Source: Dehalococcoidia bacterium (GTDB lineage Bacteria > Chloroflexota > Dehalococcoidia > Bin125). From it: a DNA stretch of 64,000 nucleotides. Below the pieces are notes generated by a model, which worked only from the letters and a program-made list of their open reading frames with translations, was not told where the DNA came from and did not search any database. Shown one piece after another: positions 15,058 to 63,442 of this stretch. The position numbers and the translations under genes are program-made. Numbering within the stretch: position 1 is the stretch's first letter; each line of letters starts with the position of its first letter. The stretch spans positions 73,202-137,201 of the forward strand of contig CAXXNO010000011.1 of the NCBI GenBank assembly GCA_963663235.2. The letters run 5' to 3'.

Positions 15058-16206
15058 ATGAAGCGAAATCCGACGCGGCCGGTCCAGGTGGGCCCGATCA
15101 CGATCGGCGGCGGGGCGCCGATCGCCGTGCAGTCCATGGCGGCGACGCGGACCCAGGACGTCGAGGCCACGGTGCGCCAGGTGAACCTGATCCAGGAGGC
15201 GGGGGCAGACCTGGTCCGCATCGCCGTGGATTCCAAGAAGGACGTGGAGGCGCTGGCGGAGGTGCGGGCGCGGACCCGCGCGACCCTTTCAGTGGACCTG
15301 CAAGAGAACTACCGCCTGGCGCCGTTGGTGGCGCCCTACGTGGACAAGCTGCGCTACAACCCCGGCCACTTGCACCACCACGAGAAGCAGAAGCCGGTGC
15401 GGGACAAGGTGGCCTTCCTCGCCGAGACGGCCGCGAAGAACGACTGCGCGCTCCGCGTGGGCGTCAACTGCGGGTCGGTGGACCCGCGTTTGCAAGAGCG
15501 ATACGGGAGCGATCACGTCGGTGCGATGGTGGCCAGCGCGCTGGAGCACTGCGCCCTGCTGGACGATCTGGGCTTTCAGCGCTACGTGGTGTCGCTGAAG
15601 GACTCCGACTGGCGCAAGGTGGTGGAAGGGAACCGTCGCTTTGCGGCCGAGCGGCCGGACGTGCCCATCCACCTGGGCGTCACCGAGGCGGGCATGCCGC
15701 CGGAGGGCGAGATCAAGACACGGGTCGCCTTTGAGCAGGTGCTCACCGAGGGAATCGGCGACACCGTGCGCGTGTCGCTCACGGTGCCGTTCGAGGAGAA
15801 GGGCCGCGAGGTGACGGTGGCCCGCGAGATCCTGGCGGACATCGCCGCCGGACGCTTCCGTTCCGTCCCCGCGTCTCTGGACCAGGGGCTGAACATCATC
15901 TCCTGCCCCTCCTGCTCGCGCGTGGAGAACGAGGCCTTCATCGATCTGGCGCGCGACGTGAAGGAGCTGACCGCCTACGCCCAGGAGTACGACATCACGA
16001 TCGCCGTGATGGGCTGTCGGGTGAACGGGCCGGGTGAAACCGATGGCGCCGATCTGGGCCTCTGGTGCGGGCCGGCGGCCGTGAACCTTAAGCGCGGGTC
16101 GGAGACCATCGGCGCCTATCCGTATGACCGGGTGCTCGGTGAATTGCGGGTCGCGCTGGATGCCGTGATCGCGGAGCGGCGCGCCGGCAGCGGCGTACGC
16201 GCCTAG
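15058..16206 (+). CDS. ispG: (E)-4-hydroxy-3-methylbut-2-enyl-diphosphate synthase
   Basis: [47 protein letters not shown]. Confidence 0.95.
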
Positions 16207-16443
16207 CGCGGCGCGCTCTCCTAGCGCAGCGCGCTCTCCTAGCGCAGGGCGCTCTCCTAGCGCAGGGCGCTCTCCTAGCGCAGGGCGCTCTCCTAGCGCA
16301 GGGCGCTCTCCTAGCGCAGGGCGCTCTCCTAGCGCAGGGCGCTCTCCTAGGGCGCTCTCCTAGCGCAGGGCGCTCTCCGCGCTCTCCTAGCGCAGGGCGC
16401 TCTCCTAGCGCAGCAGGGCGCTCTCCTAGCGCAGGGCGCTCTC
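16203..16443. repeat. Tandem array of the 18-bp unit CTAGCGCAGGGCGCTCTC (about 13-14 units, some truncated or variant)
   Basis: Units start at 16203, 16221, 16239, 16257, 16275, 16293, 16311, 16329, 16347 (13 nt), 16360, 16378 (9 nt), 16387, 16405 (21 nt), 16426; no spacers. Confidence 0.97.
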
Positions 16444-37568: not shown

Positions 37569-39611
37569 ATGAGCGGGTGGGCATATTTCTCCGACGAACA
37601 CGGAATCGGGCGGCCCGAGACTGGGCTAGTGCGTGAAGAAGTCCCGGAGCGAGTGAGACATGCGCTTGTCCACTACCTGGGGGACCGAGATGGATTCCGT
37701 CTTTCTGAAATGTGGACATGGATCGTGTATCAGTTGGATTGGAATCCTAACCTGGTGCGCGTGACCTGCCCCCCCAGAACCGGTCCAGATCCTGTGCGAG
37801 GATTCGGGCCGGTGCGAAGGGAGTCGGCATGGCACGCAAGCGGTACGCGGCCGAGGAGATCATCGGCAAACTGCGGGAGGCGGAGGTGGTGCTCGCGCAG
37901 GGGGAATCGGTCGCGCCGGTCGCGCGCCGCCTCGGCGTGGCCGAGCCAACGTATTACCGCTGGCGGCGGGAGGACGGGGGGCTGCGGGTCGACCAGGGGC
38001 CAAGCGGCTGAAAGAACGGGAGCGCGAGAACAGTCGGCTGAAGCGGGTGGTGGCCGATCAGGCGCGGGCCAACGCGATGGTGGGGGACGTCGCAGCGGGA
38101 AACTTCTGCGCCCGGCCCAGCGGCGCCGGGCGACATCCTACCGCACGGACCCGTACGCGGTGTCGGAGCGGCGGGCCTGCCCGGTCACCGGCCAGGCGCG
38201 GGCGACACAGCGCTCCGTGCCCCGGCCGTCCCCGGATGAGCCGGCGCTGATCGCGCGCAGCGTCGCGCTGGCCCCCCGCTGCGGCCGCTACGGCTCCCGT
38301 CGCATCCCGGCCCGGCTGCGCCAGGCGGGCTGGCGGGTGAACCCCAAGCGGGTCGAGCGGCTCTGGCGTCAGGAAGGCTGGCGGGTCCCCGGGAAGCACC
38401 CCCAACGGGGCCGCCTCTGGCTCGCGGCCGGCGCGCTGGTGCGGCGGCGGGCCGAGCGGCCGTCCCACGGCTGGTCCGACGCCTTCGGCTTCGACCGCAC
38501 CGCCGATGGGCGCCCGGTGCGGATCCTCGCCATCGTGGATGAGGACCACCCGCGAGGGCCTGCGTCTCGACGTCGCCCGCCGACGGCGCCGCGACGACGG
38601 CCTGGCGCGGTTGGCCCAGCTGTTCGTCGAGCGCGGGCCGCCGCCGTTTCTGCGGTCCGCCAACGGCCCGGCGTTCACCGCCACCGCGGTGCGGGACTGG
38701 CTGCACCGGGTCGGGGGCACGACCCGCTTCATCGAACCGGGCAGGCCTTGGGCGAACGGCTCTGGGGAATCGTTCAACGGCAAGCTGCGCGACGCGTGCC
38801 TCAATCGCGAGCGCTTCGACACCCTGCTGGAAGCCCAGATCCTCATCGCGGGCTGGCGGCGGGAGGACAACCCGATCCGCCCCCACCGTGCCCTCGGCTA
38901 CCGCCCCCCCGCCCCGGAAACGCAGCAACCCCGGGAACGTCCCATGACGCTCGTCCCGGCGATCGGACTCACTTAACGACTGGTACAACGATCGGGGGCA
39001 GGTCAGACCTATGGAGCGCCATTTTCTATTACGTGCGTGATAAGAGCAGCTACGGGTTATTTGGCGCGAATGAGTTCCTGAACTTTCTCAACTCGCGACT
39101 GATTCGACACTACTCTGCGTACCAGATGGACGAGACGGGCCGGATGATTGAGCCAGGTGCTGCGCCTGCGAATGAAGCGATTGCCGAGGCGCGGGCGCTC
39201 CTGGCGGAGGATCGTTTCCGAGGTCCGGATAGGCAATATCAAGAGGCGTTGGAGGCGTTTTACCGACGCCCCGATCCGAACTGTGAAGCGGCTGTTTCGA
39301 ATGCAATCAACGCGACCGAGGGCGTTGCGCGCGTCGTCCTTGATAACAGCAACATCAATCTTTCGGATGCGCTGAAGCGAATCCAAGACGAGCGAGACTT
39401 ACACCCAGCGCTCTCCGAGAGCATGGTCAGGCTATACGGGTATGCTTCGGACGAGGGCGGCCGACACGGACTGGTCGGAGATCCGAGAGTGGATCGCCCG
39501 ATCGCCGAGTTCTGTTTGCACCAGTGCGCAGCGGCAATTGTGTTCTTAGCGCGGCTCTATAGTGCAGAAGTGGTGGAGGGGCCACGGGCATCTGCAAACG
39601 CTGAGTCATAG
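37569..39611 (+). pseudogene. AbiJ-N-terminal-domain-like protein interrupted by an IS3-family element (host parts 37569-37761 and 39006-39611)
   Basis: N part YFSDEHG...EEVPERVRHAL; C part RRPDPNCEAAVSNAINATEGVAR...LHPAL...LYGYASDEGGRHG; lower GC than host. Family call from motif recall. Confidence 0.65.
37762..39005 (+). mobile_element. Degenerate IS3-family element (IS407-group-like), copy 1, 1244 bp
   Basis: TG...CA ends TGACCTGCCCCC / GGGGGCAGGTCA; orfA MARKRYAAEEIIGKLREAEV; GGGAAAC slippery site; orfB ESFNGKLRD..RPHRALGYRPP; frameshifts; no target duplication seen. Confidence 0.95.
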
Positions 39612-54190: not shown

Positions 54191-55442
54191 TGACCTGCCC
54201 CCGATCGTTGTACCAGTCGTTAAGTCGTTAAGTGAGTCCGATCGCCGGGACGAGCGTCATGGGACGTTCCCGGGGTTGCTGCGTTTCCGGGGCGGGGGGG
54301 CGGTAGCCGAGGGCACGGTGGGGGCGGATCGGGTTGTCCTCCCGCCGCCAGCCCTCGATGAGGATCTGGGCTTCCAGCAGGGTGTCGAAGCGCTCGCGAT
54401 TGAGGCACGCGTCGCGCAGCTTGCCGTTGAACGATTCCCCAGAGCCGTTCGCCCAAGGCCTGCCCGGTTCGATGAAGCGGGTCGTGCCCCCGACCCGGTG
54501 CAGCCAGTCCCGCACCGCGGTGGCGGTGCACGCCGGGCCGTTGGCGGACCGCAGAAACGGCGGCGGCCCGCGCTCGACGAACAGCTGGGCCAACCGCGCC
54601 AGGCCGACGTCGCGGCGCCGTCGGCGGGCGACGTCGAGACGCAGGCCCTCGCGGGTGGTCCTCATCCACGATGGCGAGGATCCGCACCGGGCGCCCCTCG
54701 GCGGTGCGGTCGAAGACGAAGGCGTCGGACCAGACGTGGGACGGCCGCTCGGCCCGCCGCCGCACCAGCGAGCCGGCCGCGAGCCAGCGGCGGCCCCGTT
54801 GGGGGTGCTTCCCGGGGACCCGCCAGCCTTCCTGACGCCAGCGCCGCTCGACCCGCTTGGGGTTCACCCGCCAGCCCGCCTGGCGCAGCCGGGCCGGGAT
54901 GCGACGGGAGCCGTAGCGGCCGCAGCGGGTGGCCAGCGCGACGCTGCGCGCGATCAGCGCCGGCGCATCCGGGGACGGCCGGGGCACGTCGCGCTGGGTC
55001 GCCCGCGCCTGGCCGGTGACCGGGCAGGCCCGCCGCTCCGCCACCGCGTACGGGTCCGTGCGGTAGGATGTCGCCCGGCGCCGCTTGGCCGGGCTCAGAA
55101 GTTTCCCGCTGCGACGTCCCGCACCATCGCGTTGGCCGTAGCGCCTGATCGGCCACCACCCGCTTCAGCCGACTGTTCTCGCGCTCCCGTTCTTTCAGCC
55201 GCTTGGCCTGGTCGACCCGCAGCCCCCCGTCCTCCCGCCGCCCGCGGTAATACGTTGGCTCGGCCACGCCGAGGCGGCGCGCGACCGGCGCGACCGATTC
55301 CCCCTGCGCGAGCACCACCTCCGCCTCCCGCAGTTTGCCGATGATCTCCTCGGCCGCGTACCGCTTGCGTGCCATGCCGACTCCCTTCGCACCGGCCCGA
55401 ATCCTCGCACAGGATCTGGACCGGTTCTGGGGGGGCAGGTCA
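54191..55442 (-). mobile_element. Degenerate IS3-family element, copy 2, 1252 bp, inverted relative to copy 1
   Basis: Same termini and near-identical sequence to 37762-39005; extra 8-bp tandem duplication TCGTTAAG near the right end; no target duplication seen. Confidence 0.95.
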
Positions 55443-55444
55443 TC

Positions 55445-56425
55445 TTCTCGGACGACAACGTCCTGGACAAGAACAAAGCCGCGGAGAACGGCACGGATGG
55501 CTTCGTTCTCCGCCGCGCCGACCGGAACACCTTGGAGCGGAACACGGCGCGCGGCAACACAGGGCGGGGCTTCGCTCTTGACCTGAACTCGGACGCCAAC
55601 GTCCTGGTCAAGAACAAAGCCAAGGAGAACGGCTCGGACGGCTTCCTGCTTGAGGGATCGGATGACAACACTCTGGAACGGAACGAGGCGCGGGGCAACG
55701 ACGGGCTCGGCTTCTTTCTTGACGTCTCCAACGACAACGTCCTGGTCAAAAACACGGCGAGGGAGAACGGCCGGCTCGGCTTCTTCCTCTTGGATGCCGA
55801 TCGGAACACCCTGGAGAAGAACAAGGCGCGTGACAACGGCCGCGACGGCTTCGTCCTCGACAAGTCCGACATGAACACCTTGGAGCGGAACGAGGCGCGG
55901 GGTAACGGCGGTGACGGGTTTGAGATCTTCGACAGAGCCAACTTCAACATGCTGGTGCGGAACGAGGCACGAGGCAACGCCGGGCGTGGCTTCGCTCTTG
56001 GCCTCAACTCGGACGACAACGTCCTGGTCAAGAACAAGGCGAGGGAGAACGGCTTGGGTGGCTTCCGTCTGAACCGCTCCGACCGGAACACCCTAGAGAA
56101 GAACGAGGCCACGGAGAACGGCTTGGCGGGCTTCAGGCTTGACGACTCCGGAGACAACACGCTGGAACGGAACACGGCCGAGGAGAACGGTGGAGACGGG
56201 TTCAAGACCGGGGGGGCCTCAAGCCTCAACACCTTCACCGGGAACGCGTCCGAGGAGAACGATGGCTTCGGCTACGCGGACAGCACCACGGATAGCGGAA
56301 CGGCCGGGACGGCCAACACGTACATCGCCAACACCTGCGAGGATAATCGCGCCGGGCCGTCGGACCCGCTCGGCCTGTGCGATGACGATGACGACGATGA
56401 CGATGACGGCGATGATGACGACTAG
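55445..56425 (+). pseudogene. 5'-truncated right-handed parallel beta-helix (NosD-like) repeat protein with poly-Asp tail
   Basis: 22-23-aa repeats SDxNxLxxNxAxxNGxxGFxL begin immediately at the IS end with no start or signal peptide; ends CDDDDDDDDGDDDD. Confidence 0.85.
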
Positions 56426-57897: not shown

Positions 57898-57971
57898 CGT
57901 TGCGTCTCCTCGTCCCTCTCACTCAGTAGGCTGCGGACCCGGCGTGTCGTGACGCTGGGGGCAGCCCGGGA

Positions 57972-59774
57972 TCAGGATGTGGACGGTTTGCGGAGGGCGA
58001 CGGTCGCGCCTGCGTCCAGCACGAGAGTTTCGGGCTTGGCGGGGTCGCCGTCGATGGCGACGCGGTAGACGCCACGAGCGCGGCCGAGAGATATATAGCC
58101 TTCCACGACGTCTCGGAGCACGGCGTGGGGATCGCGCGTGTGGGGGTCGCCGTAGCCGCCGCCGCCGGAGGTGAGCGAGATCAAGCGCTCGCCGGCTTCG
58201 AGGGTTTGCTCGCCCACCAGGTTTGGCAGCACCCGGACCGCGCCGTCGCGTTCGATCAGCACGGCGGCGGGCCTGGCGGGCGGGCCGCCGCCGCGCACGC
58301 CCTGGGGCGGGTTGAACATGCCGTCCAGGGAGTAGTGGGAGAGCATGGGCTCGTGGAGGGAGCCGAAGGTGCAGACGTTGCCGGGCGCGCTGCGCCGGCG
58401 GCCGGCGCCTTCGGAGTCGACGCGGACGCGGCGGTCCCAGATGGCCATGGGGTATTTCTGCTCGATGACCTCGGCGGCGTCGACGTAGAGGTTGCCGCCG
58501 GCGCCGGCGCCGACGAGGGTGAGCCAGCCGTCGGACTCGGGCCCGGCGGGGCCGCCGGCGGTGCCGCTGAAGATTTGGAACATCCAGGGGCCGTCGCGCT
58601 TGTCCTCGCCGGAGACGACGCCCACGGAGGGGGCGAGGGCCCAGCAGGGCTCGCCGAAGCCGACGCCGTCGGCGAGCTTGGCGAAGGCGGCGAAGACCAT
58701 ACCCAAGCCGTGCTCGAAGACGGTGGTGGTGCCCATGGAGCACGAGTAGGGATGGACGGGGATGCCCAGCACGCAGTTCTCGCGCAAGAGCACATCAAAG
58801 CGGCGGAAGCTGCCGCCGTTGTTGGGCGCGATCTCGACCTTGGCCTCCGGACTGGCGTTGAGGATGTGGTGGATGCCGGCGACCGCGGCGGTGGTCGCGG
58901 TGGCACGGCTCTGGTTGAGGCCGGTGGGGGTGCAATCCGGGTTGTCGCGGAAGTCGACTGTGACGCGGGCAGCTTCGGGGTCGACCTTGAGGCGCGTCTT
59001 GAGCGGAATGCCATCGGGGAGGCCGGGGAAGGGGTCGACCATGCTGGTCGTTTCGACCTCACCGGCGGGCAGCTTCCGGATCGCTGCGATGGTCACGCGC
59101 TCGGAGTAGTCCAGCCACTCGCGGACGAAGGTCCTGACCGTATCCGGCCCGAATTTCCGGCAAAACTCGTGGATGCGCTCCTCGCCGACGCGGGCGGCGG
59201 CGATCATGGCGAGGTAGTCGCCGTACCAGATCTCGGGGATGCGGATGCGCTTTTGGCACATGTGGATGATGTCGCCGACGTCTTGGTAGTGCTCCTGGAT
59301 GCGGACGCAGGGAAAGATGAGGGCGCCTTCGGCGTAGACGTCGACGGAGATAGGGGCGTAGGTGGTGCGGAGGGCGTTGCCGGTGTCGGCCTGGTGGGCC
59401 TTCACGCAGGTGGTGAAGACGTGCGCGCCCTCGTAGAAGACGGGGACGAGGATGGTCCAGTCGGCGGGGTGGGTGTTGCCGAGGTAGGGGTCGTTGTGGA
59501 GGAAGGCGTCGCCCTCCTTGAAGTCGGGGTGGAGCTCGGCCATGGCCTGGCAGAGGAGGCCGGACCCGTAGACGTGGACGGGCATGCCCTCCGGGGCCGA
59601 GAAGAGCTGGTGATCGGCGGTGGAGATGGAGCAGGAGAGGTCGCGGGCGGCGAGGGTGGCGGAGCGGGCGGTGCGGACGAGGGTGTTGGTCATCTCGCGG
59701 GCGATGCCGTCCATGCGGTTGGCCATCAGGAGGAGGGTGACGGGGTCGAGGGTTGGGGAGTCGGTGGCGGACAT
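57972..59774 (-). CDS. Hydantoinase B/oxoprolinase family protein (tandem copy 3)
   Basis: NDPYLGNTHPAD, KAHQADTG, DSEGAGRRRS, GGGGYGDP. Confidence 0.93.
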   Translation of the reverse strand: MSATDSPTLDPVTLLLMANRMDGIAREMTNTLVRTARSATLAARDLSCSISTADHQLFSAPEGMPVHVYGSGLLCQAMAELHPDFKEGDAFLHNDPYLGNTHPADWTILVPVFYEGAHVFTTCVKAHQADTGNALRTTYAPISVDVYAEGALIFPCVRIQEHYQDVGDIIHMCQKRIRIPEIWYGDYLAMIAAARVGEERIHEFCRKFGPDTVRTFVREWLDYSERVTIAAIRKLPAGEVETTSMVDPFPGLPDGIPLKTRLKVDPEAARVTVDFRDNPDCTPTGLNQSRATATTAAVAGIHHILNASPEAKVEIAPNNGGSFRRFDVLLRENCVLGIPVHPYSCSMGTTTVFEHGLGMVFAAFAKLADGVGFGEPCWALAPSVGVVSGEDKRDGPWMFQIFSGTAGGPAGPESDGWLTLVGAGAGGNLYVDAAEVIEQKYPMAIWDRRVRVDSEGAGRRRSAPGNVCTFGSLHEPMLSHYSLDGMFNPPQGVRGGGPPARPAAVLIERDGAVRVLPNLVGEQTLEAGERLISLTSGGGGYGDPHTRDPHAVLRDVVEGYISLGRARGVYRVAIDGDPAKPETLVLDAGATVALRKPSTS

Positions 59775-59837
59775 GCGTGACATCCTAGTCGGAGGGGTTC
59801 AGGCGGGGAAGTTGTTGGCCGAGGCCGGGCGTGAGGC

Positions 59838-61634
59838 TCAGCCCGAGGCGGAGTTGCGGCGGGCGACGGTGGCGGCGGCGTCGATGGTGAGAGTTTCGGG
59901 CTTGGCGGGGTCGCCGCGGAGGACGACGGCGTAGGCCTCGCGGGCACGGCCGAGAGATATATAGCCTTCCACGACGTCATCGAGGACGGTCATCGGGTCG
60001 CGGGTGTGGGGGTCGCCGTAGCCGCCGCCGCCGGCGGAGAGCGAGACGATGCGCTCGCCCGCCGCGACGGTCTGCTCGCCGACCGGCTCGGGCAGGGTGC
60101 GGATCGATCCGTCGGGCTGGATCAGCAGGGCGGCGGGCCCCAGAGCCGGGCCGCCGCCGCGCACGCCGCGGGGCCGGTTGATCATCCCTTCAAGCGAGTA
60201 GTGCACGTCGAGCGGGTCGTCGAGCGAGCCGTAGACGGAGATGCTGCCGGGCGCGCCGCGCTGGCGGCCGGCGCCCTCGGAGTCCGTGCGGACGCGCACG
60301 TCCCAGATGACGAGGGGGTACTTCTGCTCGATGACCTCCGTCTCGTCGACGAAGTTGAGGCCGCCGCCGTTGGGGAGGAGGTAGGTCATCCAGCCGTCGG
60401 ATTCGGCGCTGGAGGGGCCGCCGGCGGTGCCGCTGAAGAGCTGGAGCACCCAGGGCTCGTCGCGACGGCGGTTGAAGCCGGAGGCGACGCCCTGGAAGGG
60501 CGGCGATCCCCAACACGGCTCCGAGAGGCCGATGCCGTCGGCGAGTTGCGAGAAGGCGGCGTAGACCATGGCAAGCGCGCGGTCGCAGACGGTGTTGGTG
60601 GCCATGGAGCAGGAGACGGGGTGGCGGGGGATGCCGACGACGCAGTTCTCCCGCAGGCGCACGGTGATGGGCCGGAAGGAGCCGGCGCACTGGGGCACGA
60701 GAGGCGCTTTGGCTGTGCGCTTGGAGTTGAGGACGGTGAGGACGCCGGTGATGCCGCAGTTCATCGCGGTGGCTTCGCTAAGGTTGAGGCCGGTGGGGGT
60801 GCAGTCCGGGTTGTCGCGCAGATCGACGATGACGCGGCCGGCCCGGGAGTCGATCTCGATGTCGGCTTGGAGGGGGAGGCCGTCGGGGAGGCCGGGGAAC
60901 GGATCGAGCGTGGTTTCGGCGTGGACTCGGCCGGAGGGGAGCTCCCGGATGGCCGACTCGGCCATGCGCTCGCAGTAGTCCAGCCATTCGCGGACGAACG
61001 TCCGGACGGTTTCGACGCCGAACTTCCGGCAGAACTCCTTGAGGCTACTCTCGCCGACGCGGGCGGCGGCGAGCATGCTGAGGTAGTCGCCGTACCAGAT
61101 CTCCGGGACGCGGATGCGCTTGCGGCACATGCGGACGATGTCGCCGACGTCCTCGTAGTCTCGCTGGATGCGGACGCAGGGAAAGATGAGCGCGCCCTCG
61201 CCGTAGACGTCGAGCGCTTTGGGCATGTAGGTGGTGGGGAGGGCGTTGCCGATATCGGCCTGATGGGCTTTGGCGCAGGCGGTGAAGACGTGCTCCCCCT
61301 CAAAGAAGACGGGGACCATGATCGTGTGGTCGGCGGGGTGGGTGTTGCCGAGGTAGGGGTCGTTGTGGAGGAAGGCGTCGCCCTCCTGGAAGTCGGGGTG
61401 CAGCTCGGCCATCGCTTCGCAGAGGAGGCCGGAGCCGTAGACGTGGACGGGGGAGCCCTCAGGGGCGGCGAGGAGCTGGTGGTCGGAGGTCGAGAGGGAG
61501 CAGGAGAAGTCGCGCGCGACGAGGGTGGCGGAGCGGGCGGTGCGGACCAGGGTGTTGGTCATCCCACGGCTAATGCCGTCGATGCGGTTGGCCATGACGA
61601 GGAGGGTGACGGGGTCGAGGGTGGGGGTCGCCAT
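59838..61634 (-). CDS. Hydantoinase B/oxoprolinase family protein (tandem copy 2)
   Basis: NDPYLGNTHPAD, KAHQADIG, GGGGYGDP; ATG overlaps the upstream stop. Confidence 0.93.
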   Translation of the reverse strand: MATPTLDPVTLLVMANRIDGISRGMTNTLVRTARSATLVARDFSCSLSTSDHQLLAAPEGSPVHVYGSGLLCEAMAELHPDFQEGDAFLHNDPYLGNTHPADHTIMVPVFFEGEHVFTACAKAHQADIGNALPTTYMPKALDVYGEGALIFPCVRIQRDYEDVGDIVRMCRKRIRVPEIWYGDYLSMLAAARVGESSLKEFCRKFGVETVRTFVREWLDYCERMAESAIRELPSGRVHAETTLDPFPGLPDGLPLQADIEIDSRAGRVIVDLRDNPDCTPTGLNLSEATAMNCGITGVLTVLNSKRTAKAPLVPQCAGSFRPITVRLRENCVVGIPRHPVSCSMATNTVCDRALAMVYAAFSQLADGIGLSEPCWGSPPFQGVASGFNRRRDEPWVLQLFSGTAGGPSSAESDGWMTYLLPNGGGLNFVDETEVIEQKYPLVIWDVRVRTDSEGAGRQRGAPGSISVYGSLDDPLDVHYSLEGMINRPRGVRGGGPALGPAALLIQPDGSIRTLPEPVGEQTVAAGERIVSLSAGGGGYGDPHTRDPMTVLDDVVEGYISLGRAREAYAVVLRGDPAKPETLTIDAAATVARRNSASG

Positions 61635-63442
61635 CAGGGGGCTCCGATCGCGCGGCGGGCGACGGTGGCGGGCTCGTCCAGCGCGAGGCTCTCCGGCATG
61701 GTGGGGTCGCCTGTGATGGCGACAGCGTAGACGGCGCGGGCGCGGCCGAGAGATATATAGCCTTCCACGACGTCATCGAGGACGGCACGGGGGTCGCGGG
61801 TGCGGGGGTCGCCGTAGCCGCCGCCGCCCGCGGAGAGGCCGACGATGCGCTCGCCTACGTCGACGGGCTGCTCGCCGACGGGGTCGGGGAGGATGCGGGC
61901 GGAGCCATCGCGGGCGATCAGTTCCACGGCGGGGCCCAGGGCGCGGCCGCCGCCCTGGACGCCCTTGGGCGGGTTGTGCATGCCGTCATTGGAGTAGTGG
62001 ACCACGATTGCTTCGTCGATCGGGCCGTAGGTGCAGACGTTACCGGGCGCGCCGCGGGTGCGCCCGGGCCCTTCCGAGTCCGGGCGGAGCTTGGACACGA
62101 AGATGACGAAGGGATACTTCTGCTCGATGACTTCGGCTTCGTCGATGTACATGAGGCCGGCGGCGCCCACTTCCAGCAGCGTGAGCCATCCGTCGGACTC
62201 GGGGGTGGCCGGCCCGCCGGCGGTGCCGCTGAAGAGCTGGAGCATGAAGGGCTCATTGCGGCGGCGGTTGAAACCGGAGACCACGCCTTGAAACGGCCCT
62301 TGTCCCAGGCAGGGCTCCGCCAGCCCGATGCCGTCGGCGAGCTCGCCGAAGGCGGCGAAGATCATGCCCGTGGCGCGATCAGCCACTGTGGTGGTGGCCA
62401 TCGAGCAAGAGGTGGGGTGGATGGGGATGCCCACGACGCTGTTCTCGCGCAACAGGACGTTGAAACGGCGGTAGGCGCCGGCATTGTTGGGCACGAGGGC
62501 GGTCTTGGCAGTGCGCTTGGAGTTGAGGACGGTGAGCACGGCCGTGATGCCGCTGTTGGTAGCGGTGGCGCGGCTGAGGTTGAGGCCGGTGGGGGTGCAG
62601 TCCGGATTGTCGCGGAGATCGATCGTGACGTAGCCGGCGCTGGAGTCGATGTCGATCTCCGCTTTGAGGGACAGCCCGTCGGGGATGCCGGGGAAGGGGT
62701 CCATCTGCGTCCGCGCTACCACGCGGTCCGCTGGCAGGCGGCGGATGGCCGCCTCCGCCATGCGCTCGCTGTAGTTGAGCCATTCGCGGACGAAGGTCCG
62801 GACCTTCTTCGCCCCGAACTTGCGACAGAACTCCTGCAGCCGCTGCTCCCCCACGCGCGCGGCGGCCAGCAAGGCGAGGTAATCGCCGTACCAGAACTCG
62901 GGCACGCGGATGCGCTTCTGGCACATGCGGACGATGTCGCCCACGTCCTGGTAGTGCTCTTGGATGCGGACGCAAGGGAAGATCAGGGCGCCCTCGGCGT
63001 AGACGTCGATGGCTTTGGGCGAGTAGGTGGTGGGGGCGGCGTTGCCGGTATCGGCGAGGTGGGCCTTTACGCAGGCGGTGAAGACATGCTCCCCGTCCAC
63101 GAAGACGGGGAGCAGGATGGTGTGATCGGCGGGGTGGGTGTTGCCGAGGTAGGGGTCGTTGTGGAGGAAGGCGTCGCCCTCCTTGAAGTCGGGGTGAAGG
63201 TCCGCCATCGACTCACACTGGAGGCCGGATCCGTAGACGTGGACGGGTGCGCCCTCGGGGGCGGTGAGGAGCTGATGGTCGTCGGTGCAGATGGAGCAGG
63301 AGAAGTCGCGCGCGACGAGGGTGGCGGAGAGGGCGGTGCGGACCAGGGTATTGGTCATCTCCTCGGTGATGCCGTCCATGCGGTTGGCCATGACGAGGAG
63401 CTGGACGGGGTCGAGGGTGGAGTCGGTGGTGGGGGCAGACAT
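61634..63442 (-). CDS. Hydantoinase B/oxoprolinase family protein (tandem copy 1)
   Basis: NDPYLGNTHPAD, KAHLADTG, GGGGYGDP; TAAGAT 7 nt before ATG 63442. Confidence 0.93.
   Translation of the reverse strand: MSAPTTDSTLDPVQLLVMANRMDGITEEMTNTLVRTALSATLVARDFSCSICTDDHQLLTAPEGAPVHVYGSGLQCESMADLHPDFKEGDAFLHNDPYLGNTHPADHTILLPVFVDGEHVFTACVKAHLADTGNAAPTTYSPKAIDVYAEGALIFPCVRIQEHYQDVGDIVRMCQKRIRVPEFWYGDYLALLAAARVGEQRLQEFCRKFGAKKVRTFVREWLNYSERMAEAAIRRLPADRVVARTQMDPFPGIPDGLSLKAEIDIDSSAGYVTIDLRDNPDCTPTGLNLSRATATNSGITAVLTVLNSKRTAKTALVPNNAGAYRRFNVLLRENSVVGIPIHPTSCSMATTTVADRATGMIFAAFGELADGIGLAEPCLGQGPFQGVVSGFNRRRNEPFMLQLFSGTAGGPATPESDGWLTLLEVGAAGLMYIDEAEVIEQKYPFVIFVSKLRPDSEGPGRTRGAPGNVCTYGPIDEAIVVHYSNDGMHNPPKGVQGGGRALGPAVELIARDGSARILPDPVGEQPVDVGERIVGLSAGGGGYGDPRTRDPRAVLDDVVEGYISLGRARAVYAVAITGDPTMPESLALDEPATVARRAIGAP

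Follow-up and report, generated by a model that had tools for sequence, protein, structure and literature searches.

Why should the copies of a dead insertion sequence (IS) differ from one another almost exclusively by A/C and G/T transversions? The question is raised by a 64,000-nucleotide stretch of a Dehalococcoidia bacterium genome (assembly GCA_963663235.2, contig CAXXNO010000011.1, positions 73,202 to 137,201), hereafter the window, which corresponds to C11:73202-137201 in genome G000 (2.75 Mb, 14 contigs, 68% GC, assembly completeness 92%). The window contains two copies of a dead IS3-family element, namely copy 1 (1244 bp, 37762..39005, plus strand, ends TGACCTGCC...GGCAGGTCA) and copy 2 (1252 bp, 54191..55442, minus strand), which is inverted relative to copy 1. 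A first-pass annotation of the window had described both as saturated with A:T>C:G transversions and had offered two explanations, a mutagenesis of repeated DNA resembling fungal repeat-induced point mutation (RIP) and a genome-wide bias of the MutT type. Our data require a process that follows a proliferating non-autonomous lineage; the general mutation regime of the cell is excluded as its source, and a blanket targeting of repeats is argued against.

Substitution spectrum along the element lineage

Copy 1 and copy 2 differ by 20 substitutions (ten G/T, seven A/C, two C/G and one A/T) and three indels. The A/C+G/T class accounts for 17 of the 20, compared to a background share of 25% (P = 3e-8), and transitions, annotated as nearly absent, are missing altogether. 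The annotated count of about 20 thus stood, while the statement that all but about two of the substitutions belong to this class has to be corrected to all but three. The even split between the copies was confirmed by alignment, as the C/G allele resides in copy 1 at eight sites and in copy 2 at nine.

A blastn search of G000 revealed at least 17 full or partial copies at 97-99% identity. Two further copies at about 85% identity, both in one duplicated locus, served as outgroup for the polarisation of the 17. All copy-specific alleles reported here rest on assemblies. Among the 17 copies 69 columns are variable, and 46 of the 67 polarised changes are A>C (25) or T>G (21); the others comprise six T>C, five G>A, three C>T and seven further changes, and three columns could not be polarised. 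A>C/T>G changes exceed A>G/T>C changes 7.7-fold (46 vs 6), a ratio that selection or conversion on GC content should leave undistorted because both are AT-to-GC changes. Between one 85% copy (contig C4) and the consensus of the young copies, 63 transversions run from A/T to C/G and five in the reverse direction, with balanced transitions (P = 8e-14). Individually, the 12 full-length copies carry 51-64 A>C/T>G changes relative to the 85% outgroup, next to 119-123 other changes.

The element also occurs in other genomes. A search of 65 genomes of the same family returned seven, including G000, with matches at E <= 1e-50; beyond G000, the copies of G003 (95%) and G005 (84% and 80%) are the closest in the family, with no others so close. 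At the level of the class, three of 401 genomes match at E <= 1e-100 (G000, G003 and G274), of which G274 is the same record as G081, belongs to another family and carries its copy at 97% identity. A comparison of one G003 copy with copy 1 gave 54 differing sites, comprising 20 A>C, 22 T>G, ten reverse changes, two C/G and no transitions. For a set of 23 copies from three genomes (G000, G003 and G081), 113 sites were polarised by five outgroups, which are related IS copies that themselves recombine, and four sites were ambiguous. A>C/T>G changes make up 80 of the 117 polarised changes in this set (P = 8e-23 vs 25%), and both strands are equally affected (43 A>C vs 37 T>G). This strand symmetry, which had been annotated as unlike the adenine mutagenesis of diversity-generating retroelements (DGRs), is accompanied by the absence of any match to the reverse transcriptase domain RVT_1 in the 92%-complete G000 assembly.

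The number of derived A>C/T>G changes per copy rises from 7-14 in G003 to 22 in G081 and 30-53 in G000, whereas other derived changes remain steady at 6-13 across the genomes. The tree of the copies forms a ladder in the order G003, G081, G000, the branching within the G000 crown being weakly supported. A:T>C:G transversions have accumulated in this lineage far faster than all other changes combined.

Related IS copies also lie in tandem, 4 bp apart, in G005 (C1:578532-581016, L019), with 39/59 and 10/25 A>C/T>G changes, respectively. The former figure belongs to copy G5b and counts its private changes at sites that are invariant in six baseline relatives. Copy 1 yields 30/36 in the same test and control copies yield 1/20, 1/21, 1/35, 2/9 and 2/40. 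G5b is an independently hit copy. The TAC codon that had been annotated as struck twice indeed was, reading TCC in copy 1 and GAC in eleven G000 copies; it is kept in all five G003 copies, the G081 copy and three G000 copies, and elsewhere reads TCT in both 85% copies, GAC in G5a and TCC in G5b.

To what extent the signature extends to other mobile DNA was assessed with an asymmetry scan over all G000 self-matches. In two dead IS6-type relics, 9/16 (C11:33200-33875) and 6/18 (C12:39946-40612) of the private changes belong to the A>C/T>G class; both relics show Y>S/D and V>G replacements and the one on C11 also shows Q>P and L>R. Furthermore, an rve-type relic (C11:31296-31794) compared with its intact neighbour gave 35 vs 8 transversions, with 22 vs 20 transitions. 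The signature marks dead mobile DNA of several kinds, being older in the two other IS families, and is therefore not peculiar to one sequence. Two other candidates were rejected: a 97% IS6 copy that appeared dead is a recombinant and not a decayed copy, and a match flagged by the scan (C12:314719-315394) is an intact luciferase-like paralogue.

A sequencing or assembly artefact in a high-copy repeat could be suspected behind such a pattern. Base calling is known to confuse A with C and G with T, a mixed consensus could be partly responsible for the mosaic copies, and contigs from the sequencing runs end 26-29 letters inside the element, where bridging needs 31, so that neither the junctions nor the copy-specific alleles have independent support. 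Nevertheless, we consider an artefact barely credible, since the same derived alleles are found in the separate assemblies of G003 and G081 with a consistent polarity and dose series, the direction is one-way from A/T to C/G, and a copy in G005 was hit independently. The signature also appears in relics of other IS families that exist as unique single copies, and both the flanks and the intact repeats of this assembly are clean.

Mutation in the rest of the genome

The second explanation offered by the annotation was a genome-wide MutT-type bias that becomes visible in neutral dead DNA and is the source of the high GC content. Some observations are compatible with it. The counts from the 17 copies correspond to an equilibrium GC content of about 93% by arithmetic and four-fold GC is 87%. 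The best Nudix match reaches 34.6 bits and stays below the curated MutT cut-off of 97.9, although just 3 of 14 control genomes pass this cut-off and the assembly is 92% complete. The only MutY-like protein is truncated. Fpg is present in G000 as well, and the check for mutT, mutM and mutY that the annotation had suggested turned out to be uninformative for the question.

The cleanest control came from four-fold degenerate sites, which we compared between paralogue pairs, excluding the dead IS copies. Pairs with 95-100% identity (8214 sites) show 12 A/C+G/T differences, 34 transitions, 23 C/G and 1 A/T; those with 85-95% identity show 104, 283, 404 and 9, and those with 75-85% identity 1450, 2272, 7381 and 80, respectively. 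The ratio of A/C+G/T differences to transitions is therefore 0.35-0.64 at all levels of divergence, compared to 3.5 in the IS (49 vs 14; Fisher's test, P = 8e-8 against four-fold sites and 1.4e-8 and 3e-6 against the further controls). By arithmetic, an episode of the size needed would have left the 85-95% class with 170 or more additional A/C+G/T differences, while this class has 104 in total.

Repeats and flanking DNA behave in the same way. All other repeats of G000 together show 7479 transitions, 3222 A/C+G/T, 6358 C/G and 706 A/T differences, and five near-identical duplications of 3-10 kb show 48, 19, 6 and 4, respectively. Variants in 20 kb around copy 1 were taken from contigs of four sequencing runs, which may include the window's own source sample; among the 40 of 309 variants listed, 38 lie in the flanks and consist of 22 transitions, 8 A/C+G/T, 5 C/G and 3 A/T. 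Runs labelled sponge metagenome had small fractions of sequence words in common as well, on which no statement about habitat is based. A 2.5-kb segment common to G081 and G000 at 98.1% identity contains 20 transitions and 7 vs 8 transversions, whereas the IS of the same pair of genomes contains 4 transitions and 21 vs 3 transversions (P = 6e-4 vs the segment). Finally, the 85% pair is dead as well and yet barely hit (one copy tested, 2/40 private changes). At the end of contig C12, a comparison with C10 gave 11 differences in 3540 bp of flank, none of them A/C+G/T, and 8 differences in the adjoining 461 bp of IS, 7 of them A/C+G/T; it was not counted because the insertion points are 157 bp apart and orthology is uncertain.

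The transversion process is not the general mutation regime of the cell. A genome-wide MutT-type bias that would also be the cause of the high GC content is contradicted by four-fold sites, duplications, flank variants and the co-shared segment; we consider this explanation extremely unlikely. A pseudogene rich in A:T>C:G changes of this kind is unusable as a measure of genomic mutation bias, which bears on arguments about the origin of high GC content.

As a separate observation, a 7.6-kb duplication (C8:208032-208129 vs C8:175120-175247) contains a poly-C/poly-A tract inside an IS left end that is 25 nucleotides longer in one of its copies.

Resting copies, exchange and mobilisation

A clear difference emerged when changes in the 17 G000 copies were separated by their distribution. 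Private derived changes comprise ten transitions, five A>C/T>G and two C/G, while 43 of the 50 shared polymorphic changes are A>C/T>G (P = 3e-5 vs private). Accordingly, pairs of the 12 full copies differ on average by 16.0 A/C+G/T sites and 1.85 transitions. Intact families are clean: six aligned IS6-type copies of G000 have four variable sites, and an intact IS3 relative in G003 is free of substitutions across its four copies. A dead IS6 relic inside the 2.5-kb segment shared by G081 and G000 gained no asymmetric hits over 2% ordinary divergence. On present evidence the transversion process does not act on resting copies now, and the excess is confined to variants that are inherited or exchanged between copies.

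This changes how the RIP-like targeting proposed by the annotation has to be viewed. The part that stood is the confinement of the excess to the IS lineage, with an older trace in dead copies of two other families; the part that found no support is an in-place action triggered by homology, given the ordinary private changes, the clean intact multi-copy IS and the unhit static IS6 relic. A dedicated defence, RIP-like or guided, by which mobile DNA that proliferates or is repeated becomes mutated in place would account for an excess found only in IS DNA of three families, for the destruction of catalytic and conserved residues and for the heavily hit G5b beside a tandem neighbour with much fewer hits. 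It would hardly account for the absence of the signature from private changes, from intact multi-copy families and from the dead IS6 relic, or for element ends that are spared (see below), which point to selection during spread and not to a blanket attack. Nor is there a strong sequence preference. A>C changes are rarer after a 5' A (4/53) and before a 3' T (4/50) and commoner in TAN (13/30), with no defined motif among the A>C sites, and G5b and copy 1, as independent lineages, share 8 hit sites vs 5.3 expected (P = 0.13). In our view such a defence is very unlikely.

Recombination among the copies is evident. The four-gamete test is failed by 236 of 595 informative site pairs, and the incompatible fraction rises with distance from 0.26 (<50 bp) to 0.51 (>600 bp), the corresponding values for the crown being 0.33 and 0.70. 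This suggests that the copies have exchanged sequence; r2 depends weakly on distance (P = 0.06-0.09). Biased gene conversion of the MutY type could build on such exchange. In this case ordinary mutations would arise in single copies, and a glycosylase would remove the A from A.G mispairs in heteroduplexes, so that C:G alleles spread through the family and other variants stay rare. The shared changes, at 43/50 A>C/T>G, and the ordinary private ones are in line with this, as are the unaffected single-copy four-fold sites and static relic. Moreover, the sole MutY-like gene of G000 (C12:439679-440425; L043:780-1526, minus strand) encodes a protein of 248 amino acids (205.7 bits, cut-off 286.5). 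It consists only of HhH-GPD and the Fe-S loop, without the C-terminal domain by which canonical MutY recognises 8-oxoG. Conversion, however, alters the frequency of alleles and not the number of events: the private ratio of 5:10 predicts about seven A>C/T>G events next to the 14 transitions, where 46 are seen. In addition, there is no donor allele, as all six baseline relatives have A/T at the hit sites (30/36 in copy 1), G5b and other solitary relics carry the signature, and A>G/T>C changes show no comparable spread. Taken together, we regard this explanation as improbable.

The structure of the dead element bears on how it may have continued to spread. The left end of copy 1 (37762..37878, plus strand; 117 nucleotides) contains the inverted repeat, the leader and the first orfA codons. 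The orfA remnant (MARKRYAAEEII...; 37829..38011, plus strand), which in translation is homologous to the OrfA of the intact relative described below, is shortened in copy 1, where a four-G run (37996..37999, plus strand) with a 2-base insertion relative to most copies breaks the frame. Both forms of this run are present among contigs of the sequencing runs. The orfB frame break GAGGACCACC (38542..38551, plus strand) results from a T>G change and one extra C, turning the GAG TAC ACG of intact relatives into GAGGACCACG/C in the dead copies; the annotation had listed it as common to both window copies, which is correct, and it is also found in both 85% copies of G000. In the C-terminal orfB remnant (38341..38973, plus strand), which covers the integrase-core region, SANGPAF, GRPWANGSGES and REDNP replace SDNGPEF, GSPWENGYVES and REYNQ. 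Translations compared with less mutated copies verified these annotated motif changes together with WSYDF>WSDAF, YGYRRIT>YGSRRIP and NHKR>NPKR. Two of them, WSYDF>WSDAF and SDNGPEF>SANGPAF, replace the first two acidic positions in the alignment with the intact copy, which we take to be those of the DDE catalytic triad. The annotated loss of two DDE residues holds on this assignment, and together with the frame break inside orfB it means that the element lacks the intact triad of an active, autonomous IS. The Pfam matches left in copy 1 are HTH_21 (40.1 bits), rve_3 (74.3 bits) and rve (19.6 bits, below the cut-off of 32.6).

An intact relative at 74% identity on contig C14 has the orfA and orfB layout. 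Its OrfA matches HTH_Tnp_1 (66.4 bits, cut-off 24.1) and its OrfB matches rve (80.0 bits), rve_3 (105.8 bits) and HTH_21 (54.8 bits); orfA terminates with ...ASGNF*, and the open frame of orfB overlaps it. Terminal inverted repeats of the TG...CA type (TGACCTGCCCCC... on the left, ...GGGGGCAGGTCA on the right) are present in every full copy, and the C14 copy and the dead family are identical in their terminal 13 and 12 nucleotides. Judged by these sequences, the C14 copy is a possible helper for the mobilisation of the dead family. The domains of the intact relative and the TG...CA ends resemble the IS3 family, as do plasmid relatives at 64-69% identity that are annotated as IS3 family transposase. 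The copies studied here differ from that family in being dead and in lacking a target duplication of 3-5 bp, which was seen by eye at none of 12 full G000 copies and none of three G003/G081 copies. It is likewise missing at three G003 copies of the 76% family and at the intact C14 copy, and because intact relatives lack it too, its absence is uninformative about recombination. GACTC flanks both 85% copies on either side, the two representing one duplicated locus. The element is a non-autonomous, dead lineage of the IS3 family.

Its ends have escaped the hits. The 117-nucleotide left end contains 39 A/T sites and none of the 80 A>C/T>G sites of the 23 copies (P = 5e-5 at the element-wide hit fraction of 80/356), and the last 40 nucleotides including the inverted repeat (38966..39005, plus strand) contain 18 A/T sites and likewise no hits (P = 0.01). 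This fits selection for mobilisable ends while hits accumulated. The unhit ends and the intact C14 relative with its matching termini agree with the proposal of the annotation that trans-mobilisation moved a dead element which went on mutating.

Several observations concern the structure of individual copies. Near the right end of copy 2, an 8-bp unit (ACTTAACG in element orientation) is duplicated in tandem (54218..54233, minus strand). Tandem repeats of 69 bp (138-bp register, 63-75% identity) occupy 55447-56214 of the window, starting 5 bp past the left end of copy 2, which may have landed in or beside a gene for a repeat protein. Solitary left-end fragments (positions 1 to 61-186, 89-91% identity) are found at several loci of G005, G009 and G015. 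In G003, a chimeric element (L016:201-2261 and L017:201-2261) joins the left 1160 nucleotides of an intact IS3 relative to the right 820 nucleotides of the dead family; as its two loci have unrelated flanks, it has moved as a unit. The two chimera copies differ at three positions, each of the A/C+G/T class and each within the 820 of 2061 bp that are of the young type (P ~0.06), which are too few to weigh.

Movement between genomes also leads to the idea that the hits were acquired elsewhere, namely in MutT-type mutator strains or in a donor lineage. In such cells 8-oxo-dGTP would persist and all DNA would take A:T>C:G hits, but only selfish DNA that depends on nothing except its ends would escape by horizontal transfer or recombination to normal genomes. 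A:T>C:G is the established spectrum of MutT loss (PMC13212565), and the equally hit strands agree with this. The element does move between genomes of different families at 97% identity, its dose steps differ by genome, in-place private changes are ordinary, and the signature is found in dead copies of three IS families but is missing from non-mobile DNA. On the other hand, both major G000 clades have A>C/T>G changes of their own (8 unique in the C9 copy, 7-21 unique in the others), which would require either many separate imports of a dead element or a process that ran in a lineage with ordinary four-fold sites. When the basal C9 copy was compared with each of the other full copies by relative-rate tests, 2 of 11 gave P < 0.05. 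The 2.5-kb segment moved between G081 and G000 as well, without such hits. No donor was found in the 401 class genomes; a pattern scan of metagenome contigs and a search of viral contigs gave no matches, the plasmid collection held nothing closer than the relatives at 64-69%, and the genome contig collection returned four stretches in two records. Overall, passage through a mutator is a possible but rather unlikely origin. If it were correct, mutator lineages that are invisible by other means would be recorded, like fossils, in hypermutated mobile DNA.

We tentatively favour, at a level still short of probable, an error-prone resynthesis that is tied to copying or inter-copy recombination of the non-autonomous IS3 lineage and misincorporates at template A. 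A low-fidelity polymerase would repeatedly resynthesise the element and pair template A with G, classically by inserting 8-oxo-dGTP at this position, and a MutY-type glycosylase might fix the change. The setting might be trans-mobilisation by an intact relative or recombinational repair between copies, and the hits would later be reshuffled by conversion. As the transposase is already dead, nothing but selection on the ends would purge the hits, and autonomous IS lineages would appear clean since their propagation is limited to intact copies.

Y-family polymerases are reported to insert 8-oxo-dGTP opposite A, and candidate polymerases are encoded in G000. The genome has one DinB-like gene and, outside the window, two copies of a 9.3-kb island at 99.6% identity (C12:54196-63477 and C9:139293-148579) with genes for a tyrosine recombinase, an ImuB-like protein (IMS+IMS_C) and a DnaE2-like Pol III alpha subunit of 1085 amino acids. 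The island looks like an error-prone polymerase cassette of mobile appearance, and the one on C12 begins exactly where a dead IS copy ends. A>C/T>G changes induced by ultraviolet light are reduced in a dnaE2 deletion of M. smegmatis (PMC9346131), and dnaE2 and mutT loss have been correlated with high GC content (PMC3274465).

A number of points weigh against this resynthesis. Copying as such is not strongly mutagenic, considering the intact G003 relative (no substitutions in four copies) and the IS6-type copies (four variable sites in six); the yield per event must therefore lie well below one, with hundreds of serial copying events. Fresh hits in each copy predict many private A>C/T>G changes where 17 copies have five, so that later gene conversion must be invoked. 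The single dead relics of other families that carry the signature would have to be remnants of once proliferating lineages. Transposition in the IS3 family uses ordinary host replication. The link to the polymerases would depend on gene presence and on one paper about a distant organism. If error-prone copying or recombination nevertheless proves correct, the lineage would provide a natural read-out of a polymerase's in vivo signature in uncultured organisms and would explain the decay of non-autonomous elements.

Elsewhere in the window, about 14 tandem copies of an 18-bp unit (CCTAGCGCAGGGCGCTCT) form an array at 16166-16421 that is nearly perfect in its middle, and three tandem paralogues of about 1.8 kb with 72-81% identity lie at 57969-63029, belonging to a family with about 20 matching stretches genome-wide.

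Relation to known mutagenic systems

The case combines the signal and its controls in one genome, with an approximately ten-fold shift of the spectrum between the IS lineage and four-fold sites, flanks, repeats and co-transferred DNA. We found no report of IS-restricted A:T>C:G hypermutation in the literature searched, and to our knowledge no point-mutation process that erodes insertion sequences has been described in bacteria. Point mutation aimed at mobile DNA is represented by RIP in fungi, APOBEC in vertebrates and the adenine mutagenesis of DGRs.

The spectrum resembles that of MutT deficiency, with near-pure A:T>C:G changes on both strands and transitions nearly absent. Loss of MutT acts genome-wide, in contrast to the ordinary four-fold sites, flanks, duplications and co-shared segment of the present case. 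GC-biased conversion with MutY resembles our observations in that recombining copies have the favoured C:G alleles in common, with other variants remaining private; it differs in that it cannot create alleles absent from every relative and should also favour A>G/T>C, which is not seen. Break repair or gap filling by DinB or ImuB-DnaE2 offers a localised mutagenesis tied to resynthesis, and genes resembling these are present in G000. Known break-repair mutagenesis, in contrast, spreads to flanks with a broader spectrum, while the flanks of this element look clean and nearly a single class of change is found.

In DGRs, too, template adenines define the mutated positions. They need a reverse transcriptase and a pair of template and variable repeats, and they change A to any base on one strand, unlike the present element, in which only A>C occurs, on both strands and along the element, in a genome that has no RVT_1 match. 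A further parallel is RIP, where mobile or repeated DNA is likewise riddled with one class of point mutation and loses its function. RIP introduces C:G>T:A transitions and affects every duplicate where it lies, whereas the present element has accumulated transversions, its resting copies are not being hit and the other multi-copy IS are clean. It may be speculated that this group possesses a process which directs near-pure A:T>C:G hypermutation onto proliferating mobile DNA, be it as a defence or as a feature of copying and perhaps via the ImuB/DnaE2 cassette. We consider this doubtful, but if true, it would represent a prokaryotic counterpart of RIP and APOBEC with a different chemistry, which first kills and then erodes insertion sequences.

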